This document shows, one piece after another, positions 11,173-49,653 of a stretch of 64,000 bases of DNA. The translations under genes and the position numbers were made by a program. Positions within the stretch are counted from its first letter, which is position 1, and every line of letters begins with the position of its first letter. Below the pieces are notes generated by a model. It saw only the letters and a program-made list of their open reading frames with translations, had not been told where the DNA came from and did no database searches. The DNA lies in IMG/VR virus record IMGVR_UViG_3300014208_000030, positions 104,076 through 168,075 of that record; one strand, 5' to 3'. The DNA comes from a virus (Duplodnaviria > Heunggongvirae > Uroviricota > Caudoviricetes).

Positions 11173-11841
11173 CTAGCCCTCGCAGTCTGGGAAGGCACAA
11201 AACGGAAAGCCCATTGTGCATCTACCATCGACCCTGTTGCTGCATGCTTTCTGTTCTGGTGGATCGATCAGCTCAAGTACGTCTAAATTATTGTATCTGG
11301 CAAACTCTGGGAAGATGAAATCCTCCTCGGTATGATTGGAGACAAACCCCATTGTATCGAAGTACGGGTGTTTCACGATCGCATAGAGACCATCGTAAAG
11401 GTAGATGCCAATCGGTGAATCATAGGGTTTAAACTCACGATTAAATCTTCTGGCACCGTCCTCTGTCTCCCGCCCAGCATAGAAATAGATATTGCCATAC
11501 CGGATGTTTGTCCCCCCGCGTCGGGTAACCCGTGCTACATTGTTTCTGGCCCGCTGGATATCCACGATATTACCCACATACACCTTTGGGAGTGTCTTCA
11601 GGATATTGACAACTACCTGATCGAGCTCAGCCTCAGTGTACTTGAAATCAGAGTATTGGATTGGGTATTTTTTGAGCTCAAGCGACATAGAGCCATCCCC
11701 ACCTTGCATCTCAAAAAACCACGCATGCTGGTTTGTATCCGGCAATACGAATGGCTTAAACACATCAGATATTCTCATTCCTCTTTCGGCTCCCAGGTGA
11801 ACTCTTCTTTGGTCATGTATCAGTTCTTTTTCTGCACTCAT
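11173..11841 (-). CDS. hypothetical protein (~222 aa)
   Basis: long ORF; start set to MSAEKEL overlapping upstream stop. Confidence 0.5.
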   Translation of the reverse strand: MSAEKELIHDQRRVHLGAERGMRISDVFKPFVLPDTNQHAWFFEMQGGDGSMSLELKKYPIQYSDFKYTEAELDQVVVNILKTLPKVYVGNIVDIQRARNNVARVTRRGGTNIRYGNIYFYAGRETEDGARRFNREFKPYDSPIGIYLYDGLYAIVKHPYFDTMGFVSNHTEEDFIFPEFARYNNLDVLELIDPPEQKACSNRVDGRCTMGFPFCAFPDCEG

Positions 11842-25621: not shown

Positions 25622-25629
25622 TATAAATA
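25622..25629 (+). promoter_or_regulatory. T4-type late promoter TATAAATA
   Basis: gTATAAATAaaggatacacaaccaatataaaggactactaaATG; identical cassette upstream of 31766 and 37271. Confidence 0.75.
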
Positions 25630-25661: not shown

Positions 25662-27593
25662 ATGCCTATTTCTGCCCACGAACGCCACCTGATGAACGGT
25701 GGCTTGTTGCGCCCTGTCTCAAAGTCACTTGCAGACACCACAATTCACCCATTCGCAACCCTTGCCGCAAGACCGACTGCGTCGGAATTCGGAGTTGGTC
25801 ATGCGAGTATTGTTACAGCAACATACCGCATCAACTGTTCATCGGATGGCGTTAGCTGGGATAGTCACGGATCGAGTAGCTCAATTGCGGACAGGCCGAG
25901 TGCTGCTGCGCTTGGGAAAGGGAGTTGGCAGGATGGAGCGAATATTTATAGCTGCGATGGAGTAGGCTATGCATTAGTTGGTAGTGCAGACCCATCTACT
26001 TTTACAAATATTTTAGTAAATGGTGATAGCACATCAGTTAGGAATATTTTGGACGGTTGGTGGAAAACATCGGGCGGAGGAACGATAGCGATCAATGTCA
26101 CGGTAGGTGATATTCAGCAGTCATGTCACGCTGATTTAACGGCTGGCTCAGTAGGATATTTAAACTTCCGTGCATCAGACCAGAGCTACCAGTGGAGAGC
26201 GCCAGGCGATGACAGTTACGGCCCGTGGGTTGCTACTGTGCCAAACACGCGAGTAAGACTGGAGTCATCAAGCGCCAATAAATCGTGTTTTGTGGGTGTT
26301 ACTGGACTATCTGCTATTGACGTAAATGCACAAGCCATCACGATATCTTCAGGTTCTCCAACTATAACTGTGTCGGACGATGGCCTTGAGTCTATTCTAA
26401 GATATTTTAGGATTGACTTATCAAATGTCGCGAAACACGGAGTGGGCGGAACAACTATAGCGACTATGCTGCAATCACTGCCCTATATCAACTTAAATTA
26501 CGGCGGAGCTGGGCTAGATATAACCAGTTTAGGAATAAATGATGGCGCCACGACAACCGACGAAGCAACCACAAAATTAGCGCAGTATGCAGCATATATC
26601 GATTCAAGACTTGCGAATGGCAGGACTATTATATGGGTTGGAGTTAAGGGAAGAACTACGGGGGCAGGTGCTGCATATAACGCTTGGGGGACTACATTCC
26701 TAACTTCCTTCAATCTTGAATTTCAGCGTAGATTACATGGATTATTGCTAGAATACGCAAGAAACTTTCCGAGCACATTTAAGTATGTAAATACACTAAG
26801 TGATTTCATGGATGCGGGGTATTTGGATTTCAGACCTAAGGTATCAACCGATAACTGGGTTACTACAGATACTGTACACCAATCAGCACTCGGAGGACAG
26901 TTGATTGCTATTAATGCAGTAACCACAGCTAAGGACATCATTAAATACGGCGATGATTACTCCGATAATAGTAATAATTTACTCGGCACAATGGGTATTT
27001 ATACTGGCACAACAGCCGTAGTATCGGCGGCATCGGGACAGTCGGGTGTATTGCCAACTGGGATAATCGCCAATCCTGGCGGCTCGATTGATGGGACATG
27101 CGTTTATAGTGTAGTGCAAAGATCAACTAATATTGCCAGTTATGCGGCTATAACCGGGAAGAAACAGTTCAATGCTATAAAAATGGTTATGTCAAATGGA
27201 GTTGCAGCGCCACTTGGATTCTATGGGATAAAGGGAAGCACTGCATCGTGGACAGGTACGCTTATTGGGTTAGCAGCTGGAGATTTAATCAGGGTTGGTG
27301 TTTATCTCGACTCACTAAGCGCTGAAGTTCATGGTATTGCATTTAAGTGGAATTATGTTGGTGTAACTCCGCAAAATAATATATATACTCCAGACCAAGG
27401 TGGACAGACTAACTCACCCGGTATGCTGGCCTTCTCTGATACAAGATTATATGTTAGTCCATGGTTTGCTGTTTCTGCTAATTTTCTAGCAACAAATAGT
27501 TTTTTACCTGATTTTAGAGTATATCCAAAAGCTGGTGCAACTGGGGTAGAGTTAAATATTGGGCCTATGTTTATTGAAAAATACCCCGTATAA
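25662..27593 (+). CDS. receptor-binding / tail-fibre-like protein, paralog 1 (643 aa)
   Basis: N-terminal ~90 aa (MPISAHERHLMNGGLLRPVSKSLADTTIHPF...GKGSWQ) near-identical to two other genes; divergent Gly/Thr/Ser-rich C-terminus; late promoter. Confidence 0.65.
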   Translation: MPISAHERHLMNGGLLRPVSKSLADTTIHPFATLAARPTASEFGVGHASIVTATYRINCSSDGVSWDSHGSSSSIADRPSAAALGKGSWQDGANIYSCDGVGYALVGSADPSTFTNILVNGDSTSVRNILDGWWKTSGGGTIAINVTVGDIQQSCHADLTAGSVGYLNFRASDQSYQWRAPGDDSYGPWVATVPNTRVRLESSSANKSCFVGVTGLSAIDVNAQAITISSGSPTITVSDDGLESILRYFRIDLSNVAKHGVGGTTIATMLQSLPYINLNYGGAGLDITSLGINDGATTTDEATTKLAQYAAYIDSRLANGRTIIWVGVKGRTTGAGAAYNAWGTTFLTSFNLEFQRRLHGLLLEYARNFPSTFKYVNTLSDFMDAGYLDFRPKVSTDNWVTTDTVHQSALGGQLIAINAVTTAKDIIKYGDDYSDNSNNLLGTMGIYTGTTAVVSAASGQSGVLPTGIIANPGGSIDGTCVYSVVQRSTNIASYAAITGKKQFNAIKMVMSNGVAAPLGFYGIKGSTASWTGTLIGLAAGDLIRVGVYLDSLSAEVHGIAFKWNYVGVTPQNNIYTPDQGGQTNSPGMLAFSDTRLYVSPWFAVSANFLATNSFLPDFRVYPKAGATGVELNIGPMFIEKYPV

Positions 27594-27724: not shown

Positions 27725-30160
27725 CTATTTTAAATTGTAGCTTATGACTTTATAATCGAATTGATCTTTTGCATAATATCCTACTCGTTTCTCGAAATGG
27801 TCTAGGGTATGATTTTTGTAAGATTTATACGACATATCGTCCGCCAAATCGAACAGGTTACAAACATATTTCCCATTCCCCTTTCGCAGACCACGCCCAA
27901 CTGACTGCAAAACTTTTATCTTGCTCTTGTATGGTGATGCAAAAATAATATTGTCAATCCGCTTGATCGAAACACCGGTAGAAAATGTGCCATATGATGC
28001 AACTATCGTACAGTCATCTGTAGTCTCGGCAATCTGCCTAACAGCATCTCTGGACTCAACATCAACCTTGCCATGTATAAAGTGACAGTTACCAGCATCT
28101 TTTAGCAAATTGTAGATAGGCAGACCCTGCTTCCCGACGAATGTGAACAGTATTAGCGTATTACCTTTCAGAGAGTTCGCCAATCCGGCAATGAAGGCAT
28201 TTCTGCGCTCACTGGTGCATAGATAATCCATTTCTTGAGCATACGTAGCCTTGCTCCGAGCCATTGCCTTAGCAACTTCCTCGCGGTGCTTAATCAGGAT
28301 GCAGCTGATCTTCAGATTAGCGGCCTGACCGTTATCAATCAGTTCTCTGGTAGTTATAGTCTTAAATGCTTTCCCAAACAAACCCTCGATGACCAACCGG
28401 TTACATTTGCTGTCCTGCAAACTTCCGGTGAACCCGACTCGATAGGCGACATTGTGAGCCCTCTCCATAATATCGGTAATTGACTTAGATTTTGCAGTGT
28501 GGCAATTGCCTACTACAACAACAAAACCTTTTCTACGGACAATAATATTCCCAGACGGCACAGTAACGCAATGCACATTACCAGAATATTGGACGCGCTC
28601 TTTTTGCATCCCTTGCGTCCCTATGATATTGGTCTTCCGGATATATAATCTATGCACATCGGAAAACTTATCGCTCCTGCTATCTATCTGAATAGTTTTT
28701 CTTGCTATATATCCCGCTAGTACAGCAACGGTCTGATAAAAATCAACCGAGCACTCGGATGTGTTCGAATAGTAGTATCGATTCTCGCTGGATATGCTGC
28801 CATCCCAAATAACCATATACTCTATGATTTCTTTCGCCGTTTCGCTAGATAGTGTTGATACGTCAAAAAATGTAGATACATCCTTTGTCGCATAATCAAT
28901 ATTATATATACTAAACCGACGTTTTTCTTTGGTTTTCCCGTATGCTGGTATACTCTTCAGCTCATTATATGAAAACCCACCCTCAGCCATCAGTGCTAGG
29001 AACTCAGTTATTTTTCTTTCTTTAGAAAACTTAAACTGTAATACTTGTTTTCCGCCATCCCGACCAACAATACATCCGTCTGCTTGGAGTGCAATCATAA
29101 GCTTTTGTTTTGGTGTAAGTGGTCCAGAATCGCCTACGGCAAGCCCAGCCCCATATAGATTACATAAGGCATTAAAATTAACTTCTGCCGCAGTTACTTT
29201 TTTGTCAACATAGCCGTGCTTCTGTGTTCGCCTAATTAGCATATCATGGTTTGGAGTTACTAAAAGGTCTATTCTACTATCACTACTTATATGTACTAGC
29301 TCACCATCATAGTGCTTAGTGATATATCTAAGTGGCTTAACGAATGATATATTACCACAATCGTACTGAGCAACATCCGCAACCTCGCTCAATTCATCGA
29401 ATCGAACAAATCCTCTGTTTGTCAATATTTCTGTATCTGGAGAGAAGCACTCATCCTGAACAATCATATCGAACTGCTCATAATATGAGATTGGCATTTT
29501 TGCCATCGATTGGTAGGTAGTGAAGGTCAGTTGCTTATCGGTCTGCTTCTCCTGCCCAGAGTAGATCATGTGGCTTCTACCCTCAACATCCCATCCGCTT
29601 ACGCTAGAATAGTCAATGAAATCGGACTTCATTTGCGCCACCAGACCGACGGTTGGGAATATCAATAATACACGCTTCACTTCACCGATAGCTATCAGAT
29701 ATCTGATTGTGCTAAAGATAATCAGAGATTTCCCCGACGAAGTGGGGCTCTCGATGGTCGCCCTACGGTTGTCTAGAATATGTTTTATGGCGTCGACTTG
29801 GTAGTCATATACTGTGATAGGGTTTCCGGCAGAGTGCAACCGAAGAACATCGGCAATGTATTTTTCGATGATGGCTCTATCGTTGTCCACGACAGGATGT
29901 ACATCCTCATCATACTCTACTGTATAGCCAGCCTGCGCAGCGAATTCGAGAATGTGATAGAACAGGCCAGCATAAATGTTGCGAGTACCGGCGTTGAGGA
30001 GCCTGATTGTGCCATTCCACAACCCATGCTTATATGCCGGTGTAAACTTTGCACCTTCAACATCAAACGTGAAATGCGCAGCCATTTCGACAATAACACA
30101 TTTCTCGGCATCAATGTGCACATATACTTCGTTAAGTTTTCGAATTCGGATATCAGCCAT
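27725..30160 (-). CDS. uvsW: UvsW-like DExH (SF2) DNA helicase interrupted by an in-frame intein
   Basis: Walker A SPTSSGKS; extein blocks recalled to match T4 UvsW (KCNRLVIEGLFGKAFKTITTRELIDNGQAANLKI, TIVASYGTFSTGVSIKRI, VLQSVGRGLRK); motif II reads IVQDE|C...N|CHTAKS. Confidence 0.9.
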   Translation of the reverse strand: MADIRIRKLNEVYVHIDAEKCVIVEMAAHFTFDVEGAKFTPAYKHGLWNGTIRLLNAGTRNIYAGLFYHILEFAAQAGYTVEYDEDVHPVVDNDRAIIEKYIADVLRLHSAGNPITVYDYQVDAIKHILDNRRATIESPTSSGKSLIIFSTIRYLIAIGEVKRVLLIFPTVGLVAQMKSDFIDYSSVSGWDVEGRSHMIYSGQEKQTDKQLTFTTYQSMAKMPISYYEQFDMIVQDECFSPDTEILTNRGFVRFDELSEVADVAQYDCGNISFVKPLRYITKHYDGELVHISSDSRIDLLVTPNHDMLIRRTQKHGYVDKKVTAAEVNFNALCNLYGAGLAVGDSGPLTPKQKLMIALQADGCIVGRDGGKQVLQFKFSKERKITEFLALMAEGGFSYNELKSIPAYGKTKEKRRFSIYNIDYATKDVSTFFDVSTLSSETAKEIIEYMVIWDGSISSENRYYYSNTSECSVDFYQTVAVLAGYIARKTIQIDSRSDKFSDVHRLYIRKTNIIGTQGMQKERVQYSGNVHCVTVPSGNIIVRRKGFVVVVGNCHTAKSKSITDIMERAHNVAYRVGFTGSLQDSKCNRLVIEGLFGKAFKTITTRELIDNGQAANLKISCILIKHREEVAKAMARSKATYAQEMDYLCTSERRNAFIAGLANSLKGNTLILFTFVGKQGLPIYNLLKDAGNCHFIHGKVDVESRDAVRQIAETTDDCTIVASYGTFSTGVSIKRIDNIIFASPYKSKIKVLQSVGRGLRKGNGKYVCNLFDLADDMSYKSYKNHTLDHFEKRVGYYAKDQFDYKVISYNLK
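28505..29449 (-). mobile_element. intein (~315 aa) with LAGLIDADG-like homing endonuclease domain, inserted in helicase motif II (DE^CH)
   Basis: starts CFSPDTEILTNRGFV, ends ...GFVVVVGN followed by extein Cys; internal LYGAGLAVGDSG LAGLIDADG-like motif; extein junction rebuilds DECH. Confidence 0.8.
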
Positions 30161-31725: not shown

Positions 31726-31733
31726 TATAAATA
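31726..31733 (+). promoter_or_regulatory. late promoter TATAAATA (RBP cassette copy 2)
   Basis: same 40-nt promoter-leader as at 25622. Confidence 0.75.
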
Positions 31734-31765: not shown

Positions 31766-33324
31766 ATGCCTATTTCTGCCCACGAACGCCACCTGATGAA
31801 CGGTGGCCTGTTGCGCCCTGTCTCAAAGTCACTTGCAGACACCACAATTCACCCATTCGCAACCCTTGCCGCAAGACCGACTGCGTCGGAATTCGGAGTT
31901 GGTCATGCGAGTATTGTTACTGCAACATACCGCATCAACTGTTCATCAGATGGCGTTAGCTGGGATAGTCACGGATCGAGTGATTCAATTGCAGATAGGC
32001 CAAGTGCTGCTGCGCTTGGGAAAGGGAGTTGGCAGGTAGGTGATTTATTATACCATTCCGCTGGCGCATCATGGAAAACAGAAAAACTAGCAAAAAGAAC
32101 AAATGTATTAACCCGTTGCCCTACTGGAACTACACAAAACTACACTGGTAAAGGTGGTTTCACATTTAATATTCAGGCTGAGTTGGCTGGCGTTCCAATG
32201 GCGGTGCGTATTGCCATTCCAAATCACACAGCGGGAACACCAACTATTGCTGGTAGTTTTGGTTTTGATACTGCTATGGGTGATATTAATTCTGTGCAAT
32301 CGCGGGGGGCAATGTAGCTACATGGTATCCACTGACATTTGGTGGTGCTGCTTCTGGGACACATGCTGCAAGAGTTAGTGCTACCGAACCATCGTGGTTA
32401 TGGTCTGATTTAATTCCTTGCTCTGCATTACCTCGCGTGGACAGTGAAAGTGGGGCAATTATTCATACTAGGCTTATACAAGGCACAGCTGGTGGTGATG
32501 CCACTTCGTGGTCTGCAATGTGGGCACCTCACGCACTTGTTGCAGATATTATTAAGCATCAATGGAGGGGATGTGCTTCTGCTGCTGCTGTTGACTATGC
32601 AACAACTAACCAAGCAGCTTTTACTACAGGCTCAAACTCTGGAACGGCTAATACAACACACTTACCCTGTATGATTCAATATGTTTCGCTCACACAAGGG
32701 CAGACATTATTAACAATTGGTGATTCCATAACTGCTGGGTTAAATACAGGTACGGGTGGAGCCGCAGCAAATGGTTATGGGTGGACGGCTAAGTTACGTG
32801 ATCTATTATCTACTCCAGAAGTTCCAGTTGAATTATGTAATCTTGGGTATTCTGGGGCAACTATGGCTATGATAACTGGAATATACACTAGAAATGCTAG
32901 TGAACTAAAGAATTGCTTATTACTACATACTATGTATACACCAAATAGTATAGATGTAGTATTGGCCAAAAAAGAGCTAGTAAAATCATTAGCCATTATG
33001 GATAGTATGGGTCATGTTCCTATTTACTGGACAGGGTTGCCTAGAAATGCAACTGTAGCTGGTGGAGGTTTAGGTGGTACTAGTGCAGCTAATCTAGGCG
33101 CGTATGAGGCACAACGAGTAGAATATAATATAGAAATTTTAAGTGCTAATGAAAATGTACTGGATTTATCATCGGCTGTATCTGGCTCAGTTGTTGCTAG
33201 TGGTACAGCGGCAGGCCAAATGGAATATGCGATAGGAAATAGTGATGATGGATTACATCCTAATAATACAGCGCATGATGATATTGCCAATTACGCATAC
33301 CCGTACTTACTTAACAGAATATAA
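31766..33324 (+). CDS. receptor-binding/tail-fibre paralog 2 with C-terminal SGNH/GDSL esterase domain, split by a frameshift in a G6 tract (parts 31766-32317 and 32290-33324)
   Basis: N-terminal 183 aa identical family domain ends at TAG 32315; frame +1 is open from 32290 and encodes LLTIGDSITAGL (GDSL motif) to 33324; adding one G at 32304-32309 (cgcGGGGGGc) fuses the two. Confidence 0.6.
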
Positions 33325-33599: not shown

Positions 33600-34147
33600 A
33601 ATAATGTTAATTCCCAAATAACCGTTCATGATGCACCCTAGAGGTGCAGCCAGTTGCAGTTAGTGATTCCGTTTTGCAACTGGTGCCGCTATGATACCAG
33701 CAAACAGATGTAAAGGCAACCGCATAGCCATGCCTACCTCATTATATGGGGTTTTCTCGGAATATCTTACGACAGTCTTTTCTGTAATAAGATTTTGTCT
33801 GCAAGGCAAAATCTTTCTCTTGTCTTTTTAAAATCTTTTATAAAAGCTTTTTTAAAAAATATCTTTATGGCCTTCGGCGGTGCTACGCACCAGTACCTTA
33901 ATGGCTTTTATAAAAATAGCTTTTCTTATTTAAACAACATTGAACCGCGCGAAGCGCCGCCGTAGGCGTTTCTATAATAACTTTTTATAAAAGATTTTAT
34001 ATTAACTGCTATAACAGTGGTTATAGAAAGCCTCCGGCGGTGCTGCGCACCAGTCATAATATGTTGTTATTTAAAAATAATACATGAACCACACGAAGCG
34101 AAGCGACGTAGGAGCTTCCTATAACCACTGCTATAAAAGCTTTTATA
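33600..34147 (+). ncRNA. candidate structured non-coding RNA region: two tandem ~130-nt repeat units (33870-33990, 34000-34140) plus upstream hairpins
   Basis: units share cggcggtgct[ag]cgcaccagt...tgaacc..gaagcg..cgtagg...ataaaag.tttt; internal inverted repeats ccttcggcgg/ccgccgtagg, ggtgc/gcacc; 12-bp imperfect IR gcagccagttgca/tgcaactggtgc at 33640-33690; no ORF >60 aa on +. Confidence 0.35.
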
Positions 34148-41007: not shown

Positions 41008-41448
41008 ATGCTGACATTAGCTGAGCTAAAAGCAGAATGGTCAATAGATTGCAATATAAACAAAGATGATATCGGGCTTGAATCTATCAAGACGGCATCT
41101 CTGCACGCCAAATATATCAACGAATGGGCATCGTATAAATCTAGGCAAGTAAAGCTTGCATCAGATTTTGCTGCAATGAGAAAGTTGCGTACAAGATATT
41201 ACCGTGGGGAACTGACTCAGGCCGAACTCATCGAAAATAATTGGGAGCAGTATCAGGGCGTTAAATTGCCAAAGACTGAAACCGAAACGTTTCTGGCTGG
41301 CGATGCCCACCTAATCGATTTAAACAACAAACTGGAATATTGCAGATTAACGATAGGCTATTTGGATCAAGTGCTTAAGCTGATCTATAACCGGTCTTTC
41401 TTAATCCGTGATTATATCGAAGACAGAAAATTTCAAATGGGATATTAA
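41008..41448 (+). CDS. hypothetical protein (146 aa)
   Basis: ORF. Confidence 0.5.
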   Translation: MLTLAELKAEWSIDCNINKDDIGLESIKTASLHAKYINEWASYKSRQVKLASDFAAMRKLRTRYYRGELTQAELIENNWEQYQGVKLPKTETETFLAGDAHLIDLNNKLEYCRLTIGYLDQVLKLIYNRSFLIRDYIEDRKFQMGY

Positions 41449-41634
41449 ATGCACGAAGAATTTGATTTTACTGATGCTGGCTACCGGTCGGCATTTGAAT
41501 GGCTGAGCCAAATTGGTGAAGTTGCTAAAGATACACACAAATACCAAACAATGGATCGCATCCAGCTTATTGTAGAAGCCAATAACATAAAGGCCAGACA
41601 AGTTATTCTGAATGGCTGATTTAAAAATTACCGG

Positions 41635-41662
41635 TTGACATATACGTAAAAGTACGTATAAT
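41635..41662 (+). promoter_or_regulatory. sigma70 promoter TTGACA-16-TATAAT with 8-bp inverted repeat (tatacgta/tacgtata) in the spacer
   Basis: perfect consensus hexamers. Confidence 0.6.
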
Positions 41663-41706
41663 TTACCACTCTAACAACAACAACAAAACGGATAAAATAA
41701 CAACAT

Positions 41707-41964
41707 ATGCCACACGCTAAAAAAAGATTTGAAGTAGAATTACAAATAAATGATCTCTCTACACAACGTGGCGCAATACTGGCGCATGCATCTATGCTGT
41801 ACCGAGAGCTTGACGATGTCTGCGCAGAATATTCGATGCTGATGGAGCGAATGGAAGATTTAGAAGATGCCATCGAGTATTTTGATTTCTGTGCCACCAG
41901 AGCAATGGTTAGCGAAGAAAAACTGATCAGCGGTATCGTAAAGCTTTGCCAAACCGGTAAATAA
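41707..41964 (+). CDS. hypothetical protein (85 aa)
   Basis: ORF downstream of the 41635 promoter. Confidence 0.45.
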   Translation: MPHAKKRFEVELQINDLSTQRGAILAHASMLYRELDDVCAEYSMLMERMEDLEDAIEYFDFCATRAMVSEEKLISGIVKLCQTGK

Positions 41965-42000
41965 GAACCTTTTAATAATGTATACGGTGAGAAAACAATA

Positions 42001-42501
42001 ATGAATAATGAATACACATTTTTTTGGCGAGGCGTGTTCTCGCAGTGGAGCCCATCAAGATTCGTCTTTGAGGCGAAAGAATTTAACTGCGCCGAACAGG
42101 CAATGATGTACCATAAGGCAGTACTCTTTGGTGACTTCAATACTGCTGGCAAAATCATGGCAACACCATCCCCAAAAGACCAACAGGCACTTGGCCGCGA
42201 AGTAGCCAATTTCTGCCAAGCTACTTGGAATGCATTTGCCAGACAGCTAGTTGTCGACATCAGCGTTGCCAAATTTTCACAGAACAAAGGCTTGTGGGAA
42301 ATACTGGATGCTACCGGTAACACCACCTTGGTAGAAGCATCTCCAAAAGACAAAATCTGGGGAATTGGGTTGGCAGAAGAAGTTGCGAAGAAAACTCCTG
42401 CAGATCAGTGGGTCGGTACTAACTGGCTTGGTCTGGCGTTGACGGAAGCTAGAGAGATCATTCGCGAAAACAATTCGCAACAAAGCGATGGTATGAGCTA
42501 A
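42001..42501 (+). CDS. NADAR-domain (YbiA/DUF1768) protein
   Basis: FFWRGVFSQWSPS.F.......F...EQAMMYHKA.LFGD......I......P...K.LGREV..F....W.......V.......KF.QN..LWE.L..TG...LVEASP.D.IWGIGL matches the NADAR signature. Confidence 0.7.
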   Translation: MNNEYTFFWRGVFSQWSPSRFVFEAKEFNCAEQAMMYHKAVLFGDFNTAGKIMATPSPKDQQALGREVANFCQATWNAFARQLVVDISVAKFSQNKGLWEILDATGNTTLVEASPKDKIWGIGLAEEVAKKTPADQWVGTNWLGLALTEAREIIRENNSQQSDGMS

Positions 42502-43439
42502 TGGCGGATATCCATTACGGACGAAAACGTAAGGGCATGGTGAGAGAGCTTAATAGCAAGCTCTCTGCTTGGATCGATACTATCGATGATGAGGATGTCG
42601 TAGCTGCTGTTAAGCGTGATACTATCGTTACCGGTGGTTCCATCGCATCAATGTTGCTTGGCGAACCTATCAACGATTTTGATATCTATTTTCGCACTAA
42701 AGAGACAACATTGTTAGTTGCTCATTATTATGTCCGAAAATTCAATGATGCAATAGCGGAGAAGGCTGTGGTAATGCATAAGCCTTATGTTACCGAAAAA
42801 CCTATTATCAACTGCAAGGGTGTCGAGGAAGATCGGGTACTGATCTATATCAAGTCCGCTGGTGTTGCTGCCGAAGAGCAAAATACATACCAGTATTTTG
42901 AGATGCAGCCAAAGGAAATGGCAGAGGAATTTGCCAAATCGTTGGAAGAAAATAAAGCATCTGGTAAGGCACCATATCGCCCAGTGTTTCTGTCGGCTAA
43001 TGCAATAACATTGAGCAATGATGTTCAGCTAATTATCCGATTCTTTGGCGAGCCAGATAAGATTCATGATAACTTTGACTTCATGCATGCAATGTCCTAT
43101 TACGATTACGCTGCGCGAAACTTAGTGTTGCCAGCATCTGCATTAGAATGTTTGCTATCGCGCACTCTGGTATATGCTGGGTCACTATATCCAATGTGCT
43201 CAATATTCCGAATGAGGAAGTTTCTCGACCGAGGGTGGCGAATTAGTGCTGGTGAAATATTGAAGATCATGTGGCAAATCTCTGAACTTGATTTAAAAGA
43301 TCAAGCTGTTCTCCATGAACAGCTCACCGGTGTCGACGCAGCATACATGCACGAATTGCTCGATGCACTGAAGGATGTTGATGCAGATAAAATAAACTCT
43401 ACCTACGTGGCAGAGATAATTGACCGTATATTTAATTGA
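42501..43439 (+). CDS. Pol-beta superfamily nucleotidyltransferase-domain protein (312 aa)
   Basis: TGGSIASMLLGEPINDFDIYF = [GS]-x10-D-x-D NTase motif; no further assignment possible by eye. Confidence 0.5.
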   Translation: MADIHYGRKRKGMVRELNSKLSAWIDTIDDEDVVAAVKRDTIVTGGSIASMLLGEPINDFDIYFRTKETTLLVAHYYVRKFNDAIAEKAVVMHKPYVTEKPIINCKGVEEDRVLIYIKSAGVAAEEQNTYQYFEMQPKEMAEEFAKSLEENKASGKAPYRPVFLSANAITLSNDVQLIIRFFGEPDKIHDNFDFMHAMSYYDYAARNLVLPASALECLLSRTLVYAGSLYPMCSIFRMRKFLDRGWRISAGEILKIMWQISELDLKDQAVLHEQLTGVDAAYMHELLDALKDVDADKINSTYVAEIIDRIFN

Positions 43440-43446
43440 GGGGAAT

Positions 43447-43620
43447 ATGAAGATTTATTTCAAGTTTATTGGTCTGCTGTTGTTTTTGTTCGTCGATTGC
43501 GGCCTACTTATGCCATATCTATTCTCTCAGGAATCTGATATGGCGGTGATGCTTGGGGTGGTAGTTGCTATAGTCAACCCAGTAATTGTTTATTTGTATA
43601 TTAAATGGAGTCTTAAGTGA
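43447..43620 (+). CDS. small two-TM membrane protein (57 aa; start moved to MKIYFKF)
   Basis: SD gagggg before ATG 43447; overlaps SPFH gene start. Confidence 0.4.
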   Translation: MKIYFKFIGLLLFLFVDCGLLMPYLFSQESDMAVMLGVVVAIVNPVIVYLYIKWSLK

Positions 43621-44468
43621 AAAAAATATTATTAGTGATTATGGTAACGTTTCTGGCAGCATGCTCTTATGTAGAACCAGGATACGTCGGCATTAAAGTA
43701 AACAAATTGGGTGGCGACAAGGGCGTCAATTCTCAAGAGTTGGGCGTAGGCAGATATTGGATTGGTATGAACGAAGAGCTGTACACATTCCCAACATTTT
43801 CACAGAGTCAGATGTGGACTAAGGCTAAGACAGACGGCTCACCCAATGACGATTCATTCACATTTCAGACGAGAGAAGGCTTAAGCGTTAATGCTGATCT
43901 TGGTATCACATATGCAATTGATCCATCTAAGGTAACCGTTATCTTCCAGAAATATCGGAAAGGTATCGATGAAATTACCCATGTATACTTACGCAATATG
44001 GTTCGGGATGCTATTGTTACCGAGGCATCCAGCAGACCGATTGAGAGTGTGTATGGTGCCGGTAAAGCTGAGCTGATCGAATCAGTCCAGCGCCGAGTTG
44101 TCGCCGAAACACAATCTATCGGAATCATCATTGAGAAGATTTATCTCGTGGGTGATCTTAGACTTCCCGATGTAGTTACTGACGCTATCAATGCTAAGAT
44201 TGGCGCAACCCAGAAAGCAGCCCAGCGCGAAAACGAGGTTGCTCAATCTAGAGCCGAGGCAGAAAAGAAAATTGCAGAAGCCAAAGGTGAGGCAGACTCT
44301 AAACTCTTAGTGGCCGAAGCAGAAGCCAAAGCGATTAAGATCAAGGGTGATGCATTAAGCCAAAATCCTAAACTTGTAGAGCTCAGTGCTGTCGAAAAGT
44401 GGAATGGTGTATTACCAACATATATGATGGGGAACTCAACTCCTTTCGTAAATATCAAGCAGCAGTAA
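43617..44468 (+). CDS. SPFH/band-7 (stomatin/prohibitin-like) domain lipoprotein (GTG start)
   Basis: signal + lipobox LAACS; SPFH core YVGIKVNKLGG...; C-terminal Ala/Glu/Lys coiled coil. Confidence 0.65.
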   Translation: MKKILLVIMVTFLAACSYVEPGYVGIKVNKLGGDKGVNSQELGVGRYWIGMNEELYTFPTFSQSQMWTKAKTDGSPNDDSFTFQTREGLSVNADLGITYAIDPSKVTVIFQKYRKGIDEITHVYLRNMVRDAIVTEASSRPIESVYGAGKAELIESVQRRVVAETQSIGIIIEKIYLVGDLRLPDVVTDAINAKIGATQKAAQRENEVAQSRAEAEKKIAEAKGEADSKLLVAEAEAKAIKIKGDALSQNPKLVELSAVEKWNGVLPTYMMGNSTPFVNIKQQ

Positions 44469-44478
44469 CCAACCAAAA

Positions 44479-44505
44479 AGAGCCCGTTACGGGCTCTTTT
44501 CTTTT
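44479..44505 (+). terminator. rho-independent terminator (8-bp stem agagcccg/cgggctct, loop tta, U-tract)
   Basis: perfect hairpin followed by ttttctttt. Confidence 0.8.
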
Positions 44506-44521
44506 ATCCAAGAGGCATACA

Positions 44522-45070
44522 TTGAGAATTACAACAATATTAATTGCAATTTATTTTGCCATTATCAGTTCATGTGGTATTGTACAGGCAAATACAGATC
44601 GCCCACAGATGCATCCAGTAAATGCGGCAATTGACGGTACCAAACACGGAGCGCGAAACCCAGCAGTAACACAGGCAAATATAGATAGAACTATATGCAT
44701 ACCAAACTGGAGCGATTCGGTCAGGCCACCAACCAGCTACACAAATGGCCTAAAGCGCAAAGAGATGCTGTCTCTTAATATTGATTGGGATAGTCGGAAA
44801 CTATTTGAAGAAGATCACTGGATTTCTATTGGCATTGGCGGCGACCCAGCCGACCCACACAATTTAGTCCTGATGTCCTTTCTTGGCGCATGCAATGCCC
44901 ACAACAAAGACAGCCTAGAAGGAACTTTACATCGCATGGTATGCGCCAAACCGAAACCAAAGATTACTCTTGCTCAAGCACAGTACGAGATGAAAGCGGA
45001 TTGGGTGGCCTCATATAATTTGCATGTGGCCTCAGCAAAGTACCATAGACCAAAACTGGTTTGTAAATAA
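44522..45070 (+). CDS. putative lipoprotein (TTG start; signal ...IAIYFAIISSCG)
   Basis: SD aagagg 7 nt before TTG 44522; track start 44399 would run through the terminator. Confidence 0.4.
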   Translation: MRITTILIAIYFAIISSCGIVQANTDRPQMHPVNAAIDGTKHGARNPAVTQANIDRTICIPNWSDSVRPPTSYTNGLKRKEMLSLNIDWDSRKLFEEDHWISIGIGGDPADPHNLVLMSFLGACNAHNKDSLEGTLHRMVCAKPKPKITLAQAQYEMKADWVASYNLHVASAKYHRPKLVCK

Positions 45071-45072
45071 CT

Positions 45073-45687
45073 ATGCGAAAAGAATCGAGTAACCACATAT
45101 CGCCAATTCAAGGGTATAAACTCGACAAATCCATAAAGCTTATGTTTTGCTCCCCCAAATATAACATGTTCAAAAATGGACTTGTTAAGATCAAGGGAGA
45201 TACCTTTGACAAGCGCAAAGATGCCAAAGTTTATGCAGTAGTTACTACCAAACTTGCTGGCAAGGAGGTTCTCTATTATTTTCTTGGGAATACTCTTGCC
45301 GGTAACTATGGGAGCATATTCAATTTTGGCTACGAAGGCACCCAAATCTACAAAGACTATACGCGTAAACTCGCGTCAATCAGCCATATATTCTACGATG
45401 AACTGACGACCATCTCGTATGAGATTGACCACATCGAGCAGTTATATATCCCAGCCGGTGGAAGACCGCCACCCATTGTGCAGTTTCTCCTTGGAGGGCT
45501 CTTGTCTATCGAGACAGTAATGCTTATCCACCTGCATTGCCGCGATCTGTTTGCAATACCTTATTCGGATTATATCTGGGATCAGAAAAAAGAGCTGATC
45601 GAGAAATATACATGGTTCTTTATCAACAATTATATCAAATACAATGAAGCCAATATTTCGAAGCAATATGCCAAGATATTTTCTTGA
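45073..45687 (+). CDS. hypothetical protein (204 aa)
   Basis: ORF. Confidence 0.45.
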   Translation: MRKESSNHISPIQGYKLDKSIKLMFCSPKYNMFKNGLVKIKGDTFDKRKDAKVYAVVTTKLAGKEVLYYFLGNTLAGNYGSIFNFGYEGTQIYKDYTRKLASISHIFYDELTTISYEIDHIEQLYIPAGGRPPPIVQFLLGGLLSIETVMLIHLHCRDLFAIPYSDYIWDQKKELIEKYTWFFINNYIKYNEANISKQYAKIFS

Positions 45688-45741
45688 CAAAACATGACTT
45701 TACCTATACAATAATCAAATCATTCACTTAGGAGAAAATGG

Positions 45742-45960
45742 TTGAATACAGTAATAATGCAAGAAAAAGATATACCGCCATTGTTTATGGCAGCAGGAGA
45801 CAAAATAGTGGTCAGTCACACCGATGGCAGTGGCGAAACTACACAACTTATCGAGGCAACAATCGAAGAAGATTGTTTGTTTGATACCGTAAAGATAGTT
45901 AAATTTGAGGATGAGTTTGGACTTAAGTTTGGATATGCTGGAGTCATCGGTAAGAAATAA
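45742..45960 (+). CDS. hypothetical protein (72 aa)
   Basis: ORF, SD aggaga. Confidence 0.4.
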   Translation: MNTVIMQEKDIPPLFMAAGDKIVVSHTDGSGETTQLIEATIEEDCLFDTVKIVKFEDEFGLKFGYAGVIGKK

Positions 45961-45980
45961 TTTTAACAAGAGAATAGGAC

Positions 45981-46208
45981 ATGAGCAATATTAGTCGGAG
46001 AGATTGGCTGGTGCTGGAGCATGGCACCTTAGTTACTGTAAATACAAATGGTTATATTGCCTGTTGTGGTGACGTTAAACCATTTATTGGTACGCGGTGC
46101 CGGTTCGATAAGGTAACAAAAGCTGGTTTGGTAAGTATTTACATCGATGGTGATGTGAGAAAGAAAATAAGTGTTGCGAAAAGCAATGTTAATTTAATAA
46201 TGCAATAA
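45981..46208 (+). CDS. hypothetical protein (75 aa)
   Basis: ORF. Confidence 0.4.
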   Translation: MSNISRRDWLVLEHGTLVTVNTNGYIACCGDVKPFIGTRCRFDKVTKAGLVSIYIDGDVRKKISVAKSNVNLIMQ

Positions 46209-46223
46209 GGTGAAATTAAAATA

Positions 46224-46580
46224 ATGGAAACCACACAAGAAAAAACATTTGAGATACTGGATGTTGGTAATTCTCAGCACAGGCTTACTATTACGCCAAG
46301 CAGAATTACTATTAAATTCAAAAAAGATACACTGCGCGAAGAACGAGACGAAGTCATCAGTTTCTTTATCGCAGTCTCACAGGATGAAGATATGCAAAAC
46401 TGTGAGTGCTCATTCCGAGGTTCGGCGACAGTAACCGGTACCGGTAAGCTGCATATTATTATGCACGATGGTAGTCATGGTCGCAGTACGATGAACTATC
46501 ACTATTACTATGATAATGTTAATAAAAAATTAGACGATAGTCTGTTATTTAAAAATAAGAAAGCGAGGATTGCAGCATGA
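46224..46580 (+). CDS. hypothetical protein (118 aa)
   Basis: ORF, 4-nt overlap with next gene. Confidence 0.45.
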   Translation: METTQEKTFEILDVGNSQHRLTITPSRITIKFKKDTLREERDEVISFFIAVSQDEDMQNCECSFRGSATVTGTGKLHIIMHDGSHGRSTMNYHYYYDNVNKKLDDSLLFKNKKARIAA

Positions 46581-47848
46581 TTACAATTAATTACCCTACC
46601 AACAGTGACTTAGGCACCGATGAAGTAGTAACATTCCACACATTTTCTGGTGGCGAAGAGCACGTTAACTTGAAGCGCAGAGAGTTCGACACAGAACCAA
46701 CTATCATCATTATTGCTCAGATACTAAATTCTGCAGATGTAATGCGCCTCCTACTAACAACAGATGCGCTACGTCGCCTATACACCAACGATATTGCTCT
46801 GGTTATGCCATATCTGCCATATGCCCGTCAGGATAGAGCCTGTGTTGAAGGAGATGCGTTCAGTTTGCAAGTATTTGCTAAACTGATTAATGCACAAGAT
46901 TATGATCAGGTGACCGTAGTAGATGCTCATAGTAGTGTTGCTGGCGATCTGTTCCGCAACTTCAATAGTATCCCGCAGGCGTCAGTGCTAGCAAATGTGC
47001 GTATTGGAATTGATGAGCGCATTGCCTTTATTGTTGCGCCCGATGCTGGTGCTGCCAAAAAGGCGGTTGATTGGCAGACACAGTGGAACAATATCCCATC
47101 AAATTATGCACCAACATTCTTCCTACAAGCAACCAAGAAACGGGACGAAACTGGAAACATAGTGGCGACAGAACTTAATGGTGTTAGCGAAGGCGCACTG
47201 AATGGTGCAACATGCCTGATTGTCGATGACATAATTGACGGCGGTCGCACCTACATTGAGCTGGCTAAAGTTTTGAAATGGGCGGGTGCCGGTAATATCT
47301 ACCTATATGCAACGCATGGCATTTTTAGCCGAGGCATCCAAGTACTCCTAGATGCCGGTATTACGAAAGTATTCACTACCGACTCATTCCCAGAAAAGGA
47401 TGATGGGCGAGTTATTGTTAAACGATTTTCAACTGAGAGAAGTAACTATATTATGCAATCAACAAAGAAAAAAGTATTTCTGGGTGGTACCTGTAATGGC
47501 AGCACATGGCGAGATACACTGATCCCACTACTCAATATCGATTTCTTCAATCCGGTCGTTGCCGATTGGACAGAGGCAGCTTACGAAGAAGAGCTCAAAC
47601 AAAGGGAAGAGTGTGACTTCTGTCTATATGTAATCACGGCAGAATCGAGCAGCATATATTCCATTGCCGAAGTAGTTGATGGCAGCAATAAACGCCCAAC
47701 AAAGACGGTATTCTGCTTTCTTGAAGATATGTATACCGACCACGAAGTTAGCGCACTTGGTAGAGTTGCTAAGATGGTAGCAGAAAATGGCGGACAGTCT
47801 TTCAATACATTAGGTAGTGTCGCAAGATACTTAAACGGAGCAGCGTAA
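46577..47848 (+). CDS. ribose-phosphate pyrophosphokinase (Prs)-like protein with extra C-terminal Rossmann-like domain; candidate ADPR-pyrophosphate synthetase (Adps)
   Basis: Prs motifs LVMPYLPYARQDR and CLIVDDIIDGGRT; 423 aa, C-terminal ~120 aa (VFLGGTCNGSTW...) unlike canonical Prs. Confidence 0.7.
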   Translation: MITINYPTNSDLGTDEVVTFHTFSGGEEHVNLKRREFDTEPTIIIIAQILNSADVMRLLLTTDALRRLYTNDIALVMPYLPYARQDRACVEGDAFSLQVFAKLINAQDYDQVTVVDAHSSVAGDLFRNFNSIPQASVLANVRIGIDERIAFIVAPDAGAAKKAVDWQTQWNNIPSNYAPTFFLQATKKRDETGNIVATELNGVSEGALNGATCLIVDDIIDGGRTYIELAKVLKWAGAGNIYLYATHGIFSRGIQVLLDAGITKVFTTDSFPEKDDGRVIVKRFSTERSNYIMQSTKKKVFLGGTCNGSTWRDTLIPLLNIDFFNPVVADWTEAAYEEELKQREECDFCLYVITAESSSIYSIAEVVDGSNKRPTKTVFCFLEDMYTDHEVSALGRVAKMVAENGGQSFNTLGSVARYLNGAA

Positions 47849-47850
47849 TC

Positions 47851-49653
47851 ATGCAATCAACAGCAATAAACCAAAAAGACGGCTATAAAATTGGTCACAA
47901 ACCATTTTACCCAGACCTGACAGAAGAAATTTATGGCAATCTTACTGCACGGTCGGGTCGACTGTCAAATATCAAGGGCACCAAAGGCGTCTATTTTGTC
48001 GGTTTACAGGCTCTATTAGCCGAATATTTTGTCAAAGAATGGAATGAAACATTTTTCCAGCGACCAAAAGAAGAAGTACTCGAAAAATATCAACGTCGGG
48101 TATCGAATTTCTTTGGGTATGAGATCGATATTTCGCACATTGCCGCACTACATGATTTGGGTTTCTTGCCAATACAGGTGAAGGCGATCCCAGAAGGCTC
48201 TTTCGTTCCATATGGTGTCCCAATGGTCACCTACAAAAACACGGTCAAGAACTTTGGCTGGGTTGCGCAGATGTGTGAAACCGTATTGTCATCAGAAACA
48301 TGGCAGGGGATCACATCGGCAACGACCTATATGGAGTTCAAAAAACTCTTTACCAAATTTGCCCTGAAAACAGGCACCCATTTGGCGTTTGTCCCGTACC
48401 AAGGTCATGACTTCAGTTTCCGAGGAATGGCTGGCAGACACGCTGCAGCGAAGTCTGGTTATGCAATATTAGCCTGTGGTAGCTTCGGAACCGATTGTTT
48501 ACCGGCAATTGACTTGGCGGAAGACTATTATTATGCAGATGTTACAAAAGAGATTGTCGGGCTGTCAATTACGGGAACTGAACACTCGGTAGCATCGGCA
48601 AACATCATCACTATTGAGGAGGCTTTCCGCAAAACTGGTGAGTGGGGTGGGCTTAGGTTTGAAGACCTTATTGATGATAGTTCGGATACAGATTATAAAA
48701 ACATCGCCGAAACAGCATTTATCCATCGTGTCATATCACAGGTTGCCCCAAGCGGCAAGGTAGCGTTAGTGTGTGACACATATAATTTTTGGAACGTAGT
48801 GACAAACAGCTTGCCAATACTCAAGGGAGAAATTATGGCAAGAGATGGTCAGGTGGTTATTCGCCCGGATTCTGGCGACCCAGTTCGCATGATCTGCGGT
48901 GGCGATTACGAAGTTATACGCCATGCTGATAATATAGAACAAGCAAAGCGGTATGCCTTAGATTCATTGGAAGAGTATGTTCGTGAAGATGCCGGTCATG
49001 GCGAATGTGGAATGATAGATTACGGTGACATCTTCAACTGGAATGGAAAATACTACCGAGCTGAGGCCGAATTTGAGTGGAACCGGTACGGCAAACAGTA
49101 CTACTTCATTGACGGCAGCAAGTTGCTATCATTTGAAGAAGTTGAGCTAAGTGCTGACCAGAAAGGTCTGATCGAATGTTTGTGGGAAACTTTTGGCGGC
49201 ACATTGACCGAAACAGGCCACAGAATGCTCGATTCACATATAGGTGCTATCTACGGTGATTCAATCACATATGAACGCGCCACTGAGATTCTGACGCGAC
49301 TAGAGGCCAAAAACTTTGCCAGTGGTAACATAGTTCTAGGCTTGGGCTCCTATTTGTTTCAGCTAGTGACGCGGGACACGCACGGTATGGCAATTAAAGG
49401 CACCCACATTGTAGTGGATGGCAAAGACGTACCGATTTTCAAAGACCCAATCACTGATGACGGTACTAAAAAGTCCGCAAAAGGATATATGGTCGTGGAG
49501 ACCGATGAGAATGGCGAATATTGCATGCGCGACATGGTATCCAGAAAAGAAGAGAAATATGGTGCATTACGAGTTGTATTCCGTGATGGCATACTGTATA
49601 ATGAAACAACCTTAGCAGAAACAAGAAAATTAACCGAGTTGAAACTATCATGA
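47851..49653 (+). CDS. nicotinamide phosphoribosyltransferase (Nampt/NadV)-like protein; candidate Namat
   Basis: N-terminal DGYKIGHKPFYP resembles the Nampt DSYK.tHy block; length 600 aa; immediately follows the Prs-like gene with 2-nt spacing. Confidence 0.65.
   Translation: MQSTAINQKDGYKIGHKPFYPDLTEEIYGNLTARSGRLSNIKGTKGVYFVGLQALLAEYFVKEWNETFFQRPKEEVLEKYQRRVSNFFGYEIDISHIAALHDLGFLPIQVKAIPEGSFVPYGVPMVTYKNTVKNFGWVAQMCETVLSSETWQGITSATTYMEFKKLFTKFALKTGTHLAFVPYQGHDFSFRGMAGRHAAAKSGYAILACGSFGTDCLPAIDLAEDYYYADVTKEIVGLSITGTEHSVASANIITIEEAFRKTGEWGGLRFEDLIDDSSDTDYKNIAETAFIHRVISQVAPSGKVALVCDTYNFWNVVTNSLPILKGEIMARDGQVVIRPDSGDPVRMICGGDYEVIRHADNIEQAKRYALDSLEEYVREDAGHGECGMIDYGDIFNWNGKYYRAEAEFEWNRYGKQYYFIDGSKLLSFEEVELSADQKGLIECLWETFGGTLTETGHRMLDSHIGAIYGDSITYERATEILTRLEAKNFASGNIVLGLGSYLFQLVTRDTHGMAIKGTHIVVDGKDVPIFKDPITDDGTKKSAKGYMVVETDENGEYCMRDMVSRKEEKYGALRVVFRDGILYNETTLAETRKLTELKLS

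Follow-up and report, generated by a model that had tools for sequence, protein, structure and literature searches.

A G tract of variable length in the gene for a putative virion esterase: an uncultured T4-like phage from groundwater

Three genes built on one N-terminal module

The 64-kb stretch of DNA analysed here (the window) comes from groundwater and belongs to an uncultured, distant T4-like phage with a G+C content of 42% and a UvsW protein that is ~43% identical to cyanomyovirus UvsW. Three of its genes encode proteins that are related at their N-termini, here called paralogs 1, 2, and 3 (Table 1). They sit among replication genes (uvsW, uvsY), and the products encoded nearby include UvsY, an RNA ligase, and a tail-tube-like protein. 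The UvsW-like helicase gene itself (27725-30160, minus strand, 811 aa) matches phage UvsW in two pieces with ~62% coverage and appears to be interrupted by an intein-like insert (CFSPDTEILT ... VVGNCHT). Downstream of uvsY, at 41008-49653, Pfam marks NADAR, Gad2 (anti-Gabija-like, 42501-43439), Band_7, PRPP-synthetase-like, and NAPRTase domains in what looks like an NAD-salvage and counter-defence cluster, and an ArdA-like gene is found near 1173-1250.

Table 1. Features of the paralog 2 gene, its promoter, and the two related genes (positions in the window).
Feature	Position	Strand	Remarks
Late promoter box, T4-type, TATAAATA	31726-31733	+	40 nt upstream of the paralog 2 ATG
Paralog 2, putative virion esterase, whole gene	31766-33324	+	Frameshifted in the window (OFF allele); 519 aa with G7
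Upstream ORF, G6 form	31766-32317	+	183-aa truncated product ending ...SVQSRGAM*
N-terminal module, ~92 aa	31766-32041	+	Common to all three paralogs (87-100% amino acid identity); presumably attaches the protein to the virion
Beta-sandwich domain, ~residues 120-310 of the fusion	32123-32694	+	Alignment A1; AlphaFold pLDDT 60-75 in this region; interrupted by the tract
Open -1 frame	32290-33324	+	Rest of the beta-sandwich and SGNH esterase
Poly-G tract	32304-32309	+	G6 in the window; assemblies with G7 and with G8 also exist for this phage
SGNH/GDSL esterase domain	32695-33321	+	PF00657, alignment A1, fold matches; GDS at 32719-32727 (S321)
Paralog 1, 643 aa	25662-27593	+	Same promoter, leader, and N-terminal module; unrelated C-terminal part with no family match
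Paralog 3, 460 aa	37271-38653	+	Same promoter, leader, and N-terminal module; different SGNH esterase (PF13472, 3.6e-13)

The three genes have in common a late promoter, an identical leader, and the first ~92-100 residues of their products; the C-terminal parts are unrelated in sequence. The promoter box of paralog 2 recurs ahead of paralogs 1 (25622) and 3 (37231), with precisely the same spacing of 40 nt to the ATG. In the whole window the box has 20 matches against 5.4 expected, and these are often placed 36-40 nt upstream of plus-strand start codons, e.g., at 25622, 31726, 34148, 35390, and 37231. An earlier reading of the DNA from its letters alone (the sequence-only reading) had proposed that paralog 2, if fused across its frameshift, would match the architecture of paralogs 1 and 3. 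This is true of the N-terminal module but does not extend to the remainder of the proteins, and paralog 1 has no recognizable esterase. A search for an esterase domain in paralog 1 by Pfam, PDB sequences, and BLASTP found none, and its classification as an SGNH protein was therefore rejected.

The arrangement of three paralogs on one N-terminal module suggests three specificities that use a common attachment site. The product of paralog 2 may be a virion-borne enzyme, although its gene lies among replication genes, and the receptor-binding role (RBP) named in the sequence-only reading is a candidate one. A virion location would fit the late promoter, the weak PHROG matches to tail-fibre and tail proteins (tail fibre 5e-5 and 6e-3), and structural-gene neighbourhoods elsewhere: the homolog in Pseudomonas phage ZQG1 is located in the tail module, and a protein with the same N-terminal module and an unrelated C-terminal domain (P0017) is encoded on another contig, where sheath and tube genes follow ~1.8 kb downstream. 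Exchange of the module between unrelated phages seems to take place. It also heads proteins of two phage-like contigs from IMG 3300037810 at 58-69% identity (L009 10001-11257; L011 126-1805). One of these is a 76-kb contig bearing Rep3, TrfA, ParA, and giant LPD-domain proteins; in the other, an 87-kb myovirus-like contig, the module is fused to a CE4 polysaccharide deacetylase ~1.8 kb ahead of the sheath and tube genes.

The tract and the protein that it interrupts

In the window, the paralog 2 gene is broken at a run of six G residues, which occupies codons 180-182 and thus lies within the coding sequence (tcgcGGGGGGcaatgTAG). The zero frame within 32290-32317 reads tct gtg caa tcg cGG GGG Gca atg TAG and stops at 32315-32317. 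The -1 frame opens at 32290, right behind a TAA at 32287-32289, and its closing stop ends at 33324. When the sequence was re-read, the coordinates and frame geometry given in the sequence-only reading (G6, TAG at 32315, open frame 32290-33324) were found to be correct. Insertion of one G converts the tract to CGG GGG GGC (R-G-G) and yields a protein reading ...SVQSRGGNVATWYPLTFGG... across the junction. A single extra G thus fuses the two frames as had been proposed, the product being 519 aa rather than the ~528 aa estimated earlier. By tract length, the predicted products are 519 aa for G7, 183 aa for G6, and 204 aa for G8.

The plus strand of the window has no other G run of six or more, and C6 occurs once, at 11512-11517. 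Counted on both strands, GGGGGG is observed twice against 11.4 ± 4.4 in dinucleotide shuffles, i.e., it is depleted ~5-fold. The number of such tracts is therefore no more than expected by chance, and the significance of the one in paralog 2 comes from its position and its polymorphism. The use of CGG-GGG-GGN for R-G-G has a probability of ~0.017 given the codon usage of the genome itself. As to shorter runs, two of the four G5 runs on the plus strand fall in paralog 1 (26660-26664 and 26686-26690, 26 bases apart), and three of the 10 G/C runs of at least five bases in the window are within the three paralog genes, which make up ~8% of the sequence.

The fused protein belongs to the SGNH/GDSL family. 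It scores 25.6 bits against PF00657, above the cut-off of 23.6 (its score against PF13472, 24.8, is below the cut-off of 32.9), and it has the GDS, oxyanion Gly/Asn, and Asp-x-x-His blocks. The domain starts at around residue 311, with the GDS at residues 319-321. In an alignment with ten homologs (alignment A1), S321, N394, D495, and H498 are invariant, and G319, D320, and G361 nearly so. An AlphaFold model of the fusion has a beta-sandwich at ~120-310 and an SGNH fold behind it. The confidence of the model is low to moderate, the mean pLDDT being 58, with 60-85 for the greater part of residues 120-519. Over the full length, the best fold matches are esterases that combine these same two domains (9kr0, YxiM 2o14, and CE2 2waa), and many SGNH structures are matched with E down to 2e-11.

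The frameshift falls at residue 181/182, in the most conserved block of the beta-sandwich (GSFGFD...S.QS+G..V.TW), where G181 is invariant and W187 nearly invariant. The split had been thought to separate the N-terminal domain from the SGNH domain; it actually lies inside the beta-sandwich, so that the frameshifted (OFF) allele would lose half of that domain in addition to the entire catalytic domain. Separate expression of the esterase part from the downstream frame is unlikely, because neither GTG 32437 nor the in-frame starts after it have a Shine-Dalgarno-like motif in front of them, and independent translation of this frame was rejected on the same grounds.

Nine homologs with 38-53% identity are single ORFs covering 76-86% of the fused protein, and the SGNH hydrolase of the tailed phage ZQG1 aligns across the junction in one piece. 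Judged from these sequences, the ancestral gene was unsplit. The two closest homologs encode the corresponding S-K/R-G-G as AAA GGT GGT and CGC GGC GGT, i.e., with no G run, and conservation of poly-G at this site was consequently rejected. Another homolog (P0003, 52% identity, on a contig of 37% G+C) has an in-frame G6 of its own, GCG GGG GGA ('AGG'), at L007 1396-1401 in a gene spanning 950-2248. It is found at a different site in the same beta-sandwich domain and is the only G/C run of at least six bases in that 5-kb contig. The P0003 run could be due to chance or be a recurrent feature of the family.

Tract length in other assemblies of the phage

Other public assemblies of this phage were recovered by exact-protein look-ups. 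Comparison with sister genomes, which the sequence-only reading had already envisaged, revealed G6, G7, and G8 alleles in otherwise identical assemblies. G6 is found in a 168,088-nt contig of ENA ERZ27249449 (100% identity to the window over 20,888 bases) and in Logan SRR6484324 (identical to the window across its 1,666 bases). It is also implied at the protein level for a JGI contig of 168,075 nt, which has the identical 183-aa and 295-aa products. G7 is found in JGI 3300037810 (contig Ga0376277_0000688, 168,353 nt), which aligns to the window over 21,353 + 20,669 bases. Among the 42,022 bases compared there are 0 mismatches, and the only difference is one gap of 1 base at the tract. In this contig, the gene is called as one intact 519-aa protein (L003 4465-6024; P0020). 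The allele with one more G, anticipated as the form that would fuse the frames, thus exists in a public contig. G8 is found in Logan SRR18595301, with 0 mismatches to the window over 1,661 bases. The locus accordingly has an intragenic repeat, the length of which differs among otherwise identical genomes and toggles the frame between intact and truncated.

In the G8 assembly, the gene caller joined a spurious frame-3 ORF to the esterase frame, giving a 390-aa protein (P0001). We rejected this ORF (32154-32378), and P0001 built on it, as the real N-terminus and regard them as a gene-calling artefact of the G8 form. In both Logan contigs with the gene, the start is at 32007 or 32014, the end of the paralog-shared sequence, and the stop at 33672, and the G7 JGI contig begins inside paralog 1; evidently, assemblies break at the paralog repeat. 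A search of a phage collection for near-identical DNA gave no match to the window, and no further alleles were obtained by protein-based locus searches of viral and metagenome contigs or by exact-pattern scans of metagenome, viral, and genome collections.

IMG 3300037810 is a sample taken in October 2017 from groundwater well GW1 next to a Southern Ontario landfill. It shares an unrelated contig with SRR18595301 (100% over 8,915 bases), and the two are therefore very likely the same sample. If so, G7 and G8 would coexist there, as suggested by two assemblies that disagree. Well GW1 was also sampled in July 2016, and from accession ranges and sequence identity we infer that the G6 data stem from this earlier sampling. 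The alleles thus come from five assemblies, probably two samples, and one site, which amounts to few independent events.

Homopolymers are classic sites of error, and G7 and G8 are reported by two assemblies of what is probably one read set. This raises the question of whether the tract has a single true length that was miscounted by assemblers. We consider this improbable on several counts. First, the published metagenomes of the site are Illumina short reads. JGI used a HiSeq 2500 (2x150), and three of the 2017 samples went to a different sequencing centre, with assembly by metaSPAdes. Second, three assemblies (megahit, JGI, and Logan) agree on G6 for one data source. Third, comparable tracts do not vary. 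The only other coding-sense G6 in the window, at 11512-11517, is an in-frame GGG GGG in a minus-strand gene (11176-11841) for a 222-aa protein. It is G6 in the G7 JGI contig and in both Logan runs, and its length is constant across the four assemblies that include this position; the protein cluster of this gene has a single member common to JGI, Logan, and ENA. A second control, a G6 in an unrelated contig, does not differ between the assemblies from JGI and Logan. The same pipelines also agree on all A/T runs within the 42 kb. Because the control G6 tracts are invariant and the site metagenomes are Illumina short reads, a generic homopolymer or assembly error is an unlikely source of the length differences.

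The homologs and the allele series also bear on the possibility of programmed recoding, in which G6 would be the functional form and the 183-aa and 519-aa proteins would be made in constant proportion through -1 ribosomal frameshifting or slippage of RNA polymerase. A P-site glycine tRNA on GGG re-pairs perfectly one base back, and the shifted product (…SRGGNVATW…) would be identical to that of G7. However, the zero frame cgG GGG GCA does not conform to the canonical slippery heptamer (X XXY YYZ), and the A-site GCA cannot re-pair. A stimulatory RNA structure was sought in the 91 nt at 32310-32400 and rejected: the predicted fold of -28.1 kcal/mol is no better than that of shuffled sequences (z = -1.19; 27 of 200 shuffles fold as well). 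Moreover, the split arrangement is not kept among the homologs, all of which are single ORFs, the two closest being devoid of a G run. Finally, an intact G7 allele exists, and G8 would need the opposite shift and is not rescued by -1. Programmed recoding is thus very improbable as an explanation of the locus, although low-level leakiness through P-site slippage or RNA-polymerase stuttering may occur.

Probable slippage at the tract and comparison with known systems

The explanation that we consider probable is that the tract is a hypermutable poly-G, the slippage-based length variation of which switches a late-expressed esterase gene ON and OFF, the window representing an OFF allele. This reading is favoured because G6, G7, and G8 occur in otherwise identical genomes. 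Of the four explanations offered in the sequence-only reading, slippage-based variation in length is thus supported by the finding of three alleles, while a plain sequencing error and a programmed frameshift are argued against. The simplest mechanism would be as follows. While the phage DNA is being replicated, polymerase slippage on the G run (slipped-strand mispairing) would add or remove G residues, presumably in a reversible manner. With G7, the frame would be kept and the full 519-aa protein made, comprising the N-terminal module, the beta-sandwich, and the SGNH esterase (ON). With G6 and G8, the frame would be shifted, leaving stubs of 183 aa and 204 aa (OFF). A phage population would in this way be a mixture of ON and OFF variants for one member of a trio of putative surface proteins with related N-termini. 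With one of three specificities turned off, the mix on the virion would change, and switching would plausibly alter which acetylated surface polysaccharide the virion binds or strips and, by extension, its host range.

A non-adaptive hot spot would leave much the same trace. Here, the esterase would be dispensable, the gene on its way to becoming a pseudogene, and the frameshifted alleles would be subject to drift without serving as a switch. In line with this, four of the five assemblies have an OFF allele as their consensus, the tract is short and not conserved in homologs, and the loss could be made good by the two paralogs, which carry the same N-terminal module. Indeed, inactivation of a dispensable gene at a mutational hot spot would produce the same picture, and the 64 kb contain a single tract of this kind. 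Nevertheless, the tract has three lengths, one of which leaves the gene intact, in genomes that differ nowhere else in 42 kb. The gene also shows no secondary damage, and its catalytic residues S321, D495, and H498 are intact. Furthermore, the genome avoids G runs, yet this gene makes one through an unlikely choice of codons. Taken together, we regard mere decay at a hot spot as unlikely, if less so than a miscounted tract.

Slippage as a switch and selection for the switch are separate questions. Maintenance of the tract by selection is favoured by the avoidance of G runs, by the unlikely codon choice, by the intact catalytic residues, and by the existence of three alleles without other change. 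It is counted against by the shortness of the tract (6-8), its absence from homologs, and the small number of independent samples. One possibility, which we put forward tentatively, is that a selected contingency locus has been caught switching in situ, with G6 (OFF) at one sampling of the well and a mixture of G7 (ON) and G8 (OFF) at the next. The OFF product need not be inert in such a system. The 183-aa stub retains the N-terminal module and might compete with the two paralogs for sites on the virion. In that case, switching would shift the balance among the three enzymes and not simply take one of them away.

Virion SGNH esterases remove acetyl groups from host surface polysaccharides, and the tailspike gp63.1 of phage G7C is a virion-borne SGNH esterase that deacetylates O-antigen. 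Paralog 2 resembles gp63.1 and the two-domain esterases 2waa, 9kr0, and 2o14 in having a Ser/Asp/His triad behind a beta-sandwich and homologs in a structural-gene context. It differs in that it is not a member, at the sequence level, of the families of G7C gp63.1, CE2 2waa, 9kr0, or YxiM 2o14, and the likeness in fold is seen in a model with a mean pLDDT of 58.

In its layout, the locus is reminiscent of the poly-G/C contingency loci of Campylobacter, Neisseria, and Haemophilus, where slippage at an intragenic homopolymer toggles a gene for surface interactions, except that here it is in a virus genome. Bacterial contingency tracts usually have at least eight bases and are numerous per genome. 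Among phages, poly-G phase variation of receptor-binding proteins has been described in Campylobacter phages (Fletchervirus; Sorensen et al., 2021, Cell Rep 35:109214, as cited in PMC10579305 and PMC10877375). The two cases would have in common a G homopolymer inside the gene for one of several receptor-binding-type proteins of a large myovirus, changes in length that toggle the protein, and populations with mixed alleles. Unlike those phages, the present one is a distant T4-like phage of 42% G+C from groundwater with one tract in 64 kb, and the case for switching is built on natural alleles. Its paralog 2 is an SGNH esterase, for which no relation in sequence to the Campylobacter phage receptor-binding proteins was detected, and the G tracts of the latter are presumably longer than the one described here.

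Homopolymer contingency loci have also been reported in coliphages T2 and T4 (Gomez, Barrick and Waters, 2025, bioRxiv 10.1101/2025.10.21.683753). These share with our case the T4-type phage, +/-1 frameshifts at single-base repeats of at least six, which would be reversible here too, and an interpretation as bet-hedging. The loci studied in detail in that work are A runs in agt and rIIA that are tied to escape from host defence, in contrast to the G run in a putative surface protein gene described here. Also, the T2 and T4 loci were shown by plating and deep sequencing, whereas the present case consists of alleles in environmental assemblies. The phenomenon as such is thus already known from Campylobacter and T-even phages, and what is new is a natural allele series in an environmental T4-like phage.

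For this one gene, the gene callers gave 183 + 295 aa, 390 aa, or 519 aa, depending on the assembly. Genes with poly-G tracts of this kind are split or mis-fused by gene callers and can therefore be missed in catalogues of phage host-recognition proteins. If the locus is indeed a selected one, it would be among the few records from natural populations of phase variation in a virion surface enzyme outside the Campylobacter phages. Confirmation at the level of reads would extend poly-G switching of surface proteins past Campylobacter phages and laboratory stocks of T-even phages, and would make it possible to follow such switching in environmental T4-like phages through time series of metagenomes.
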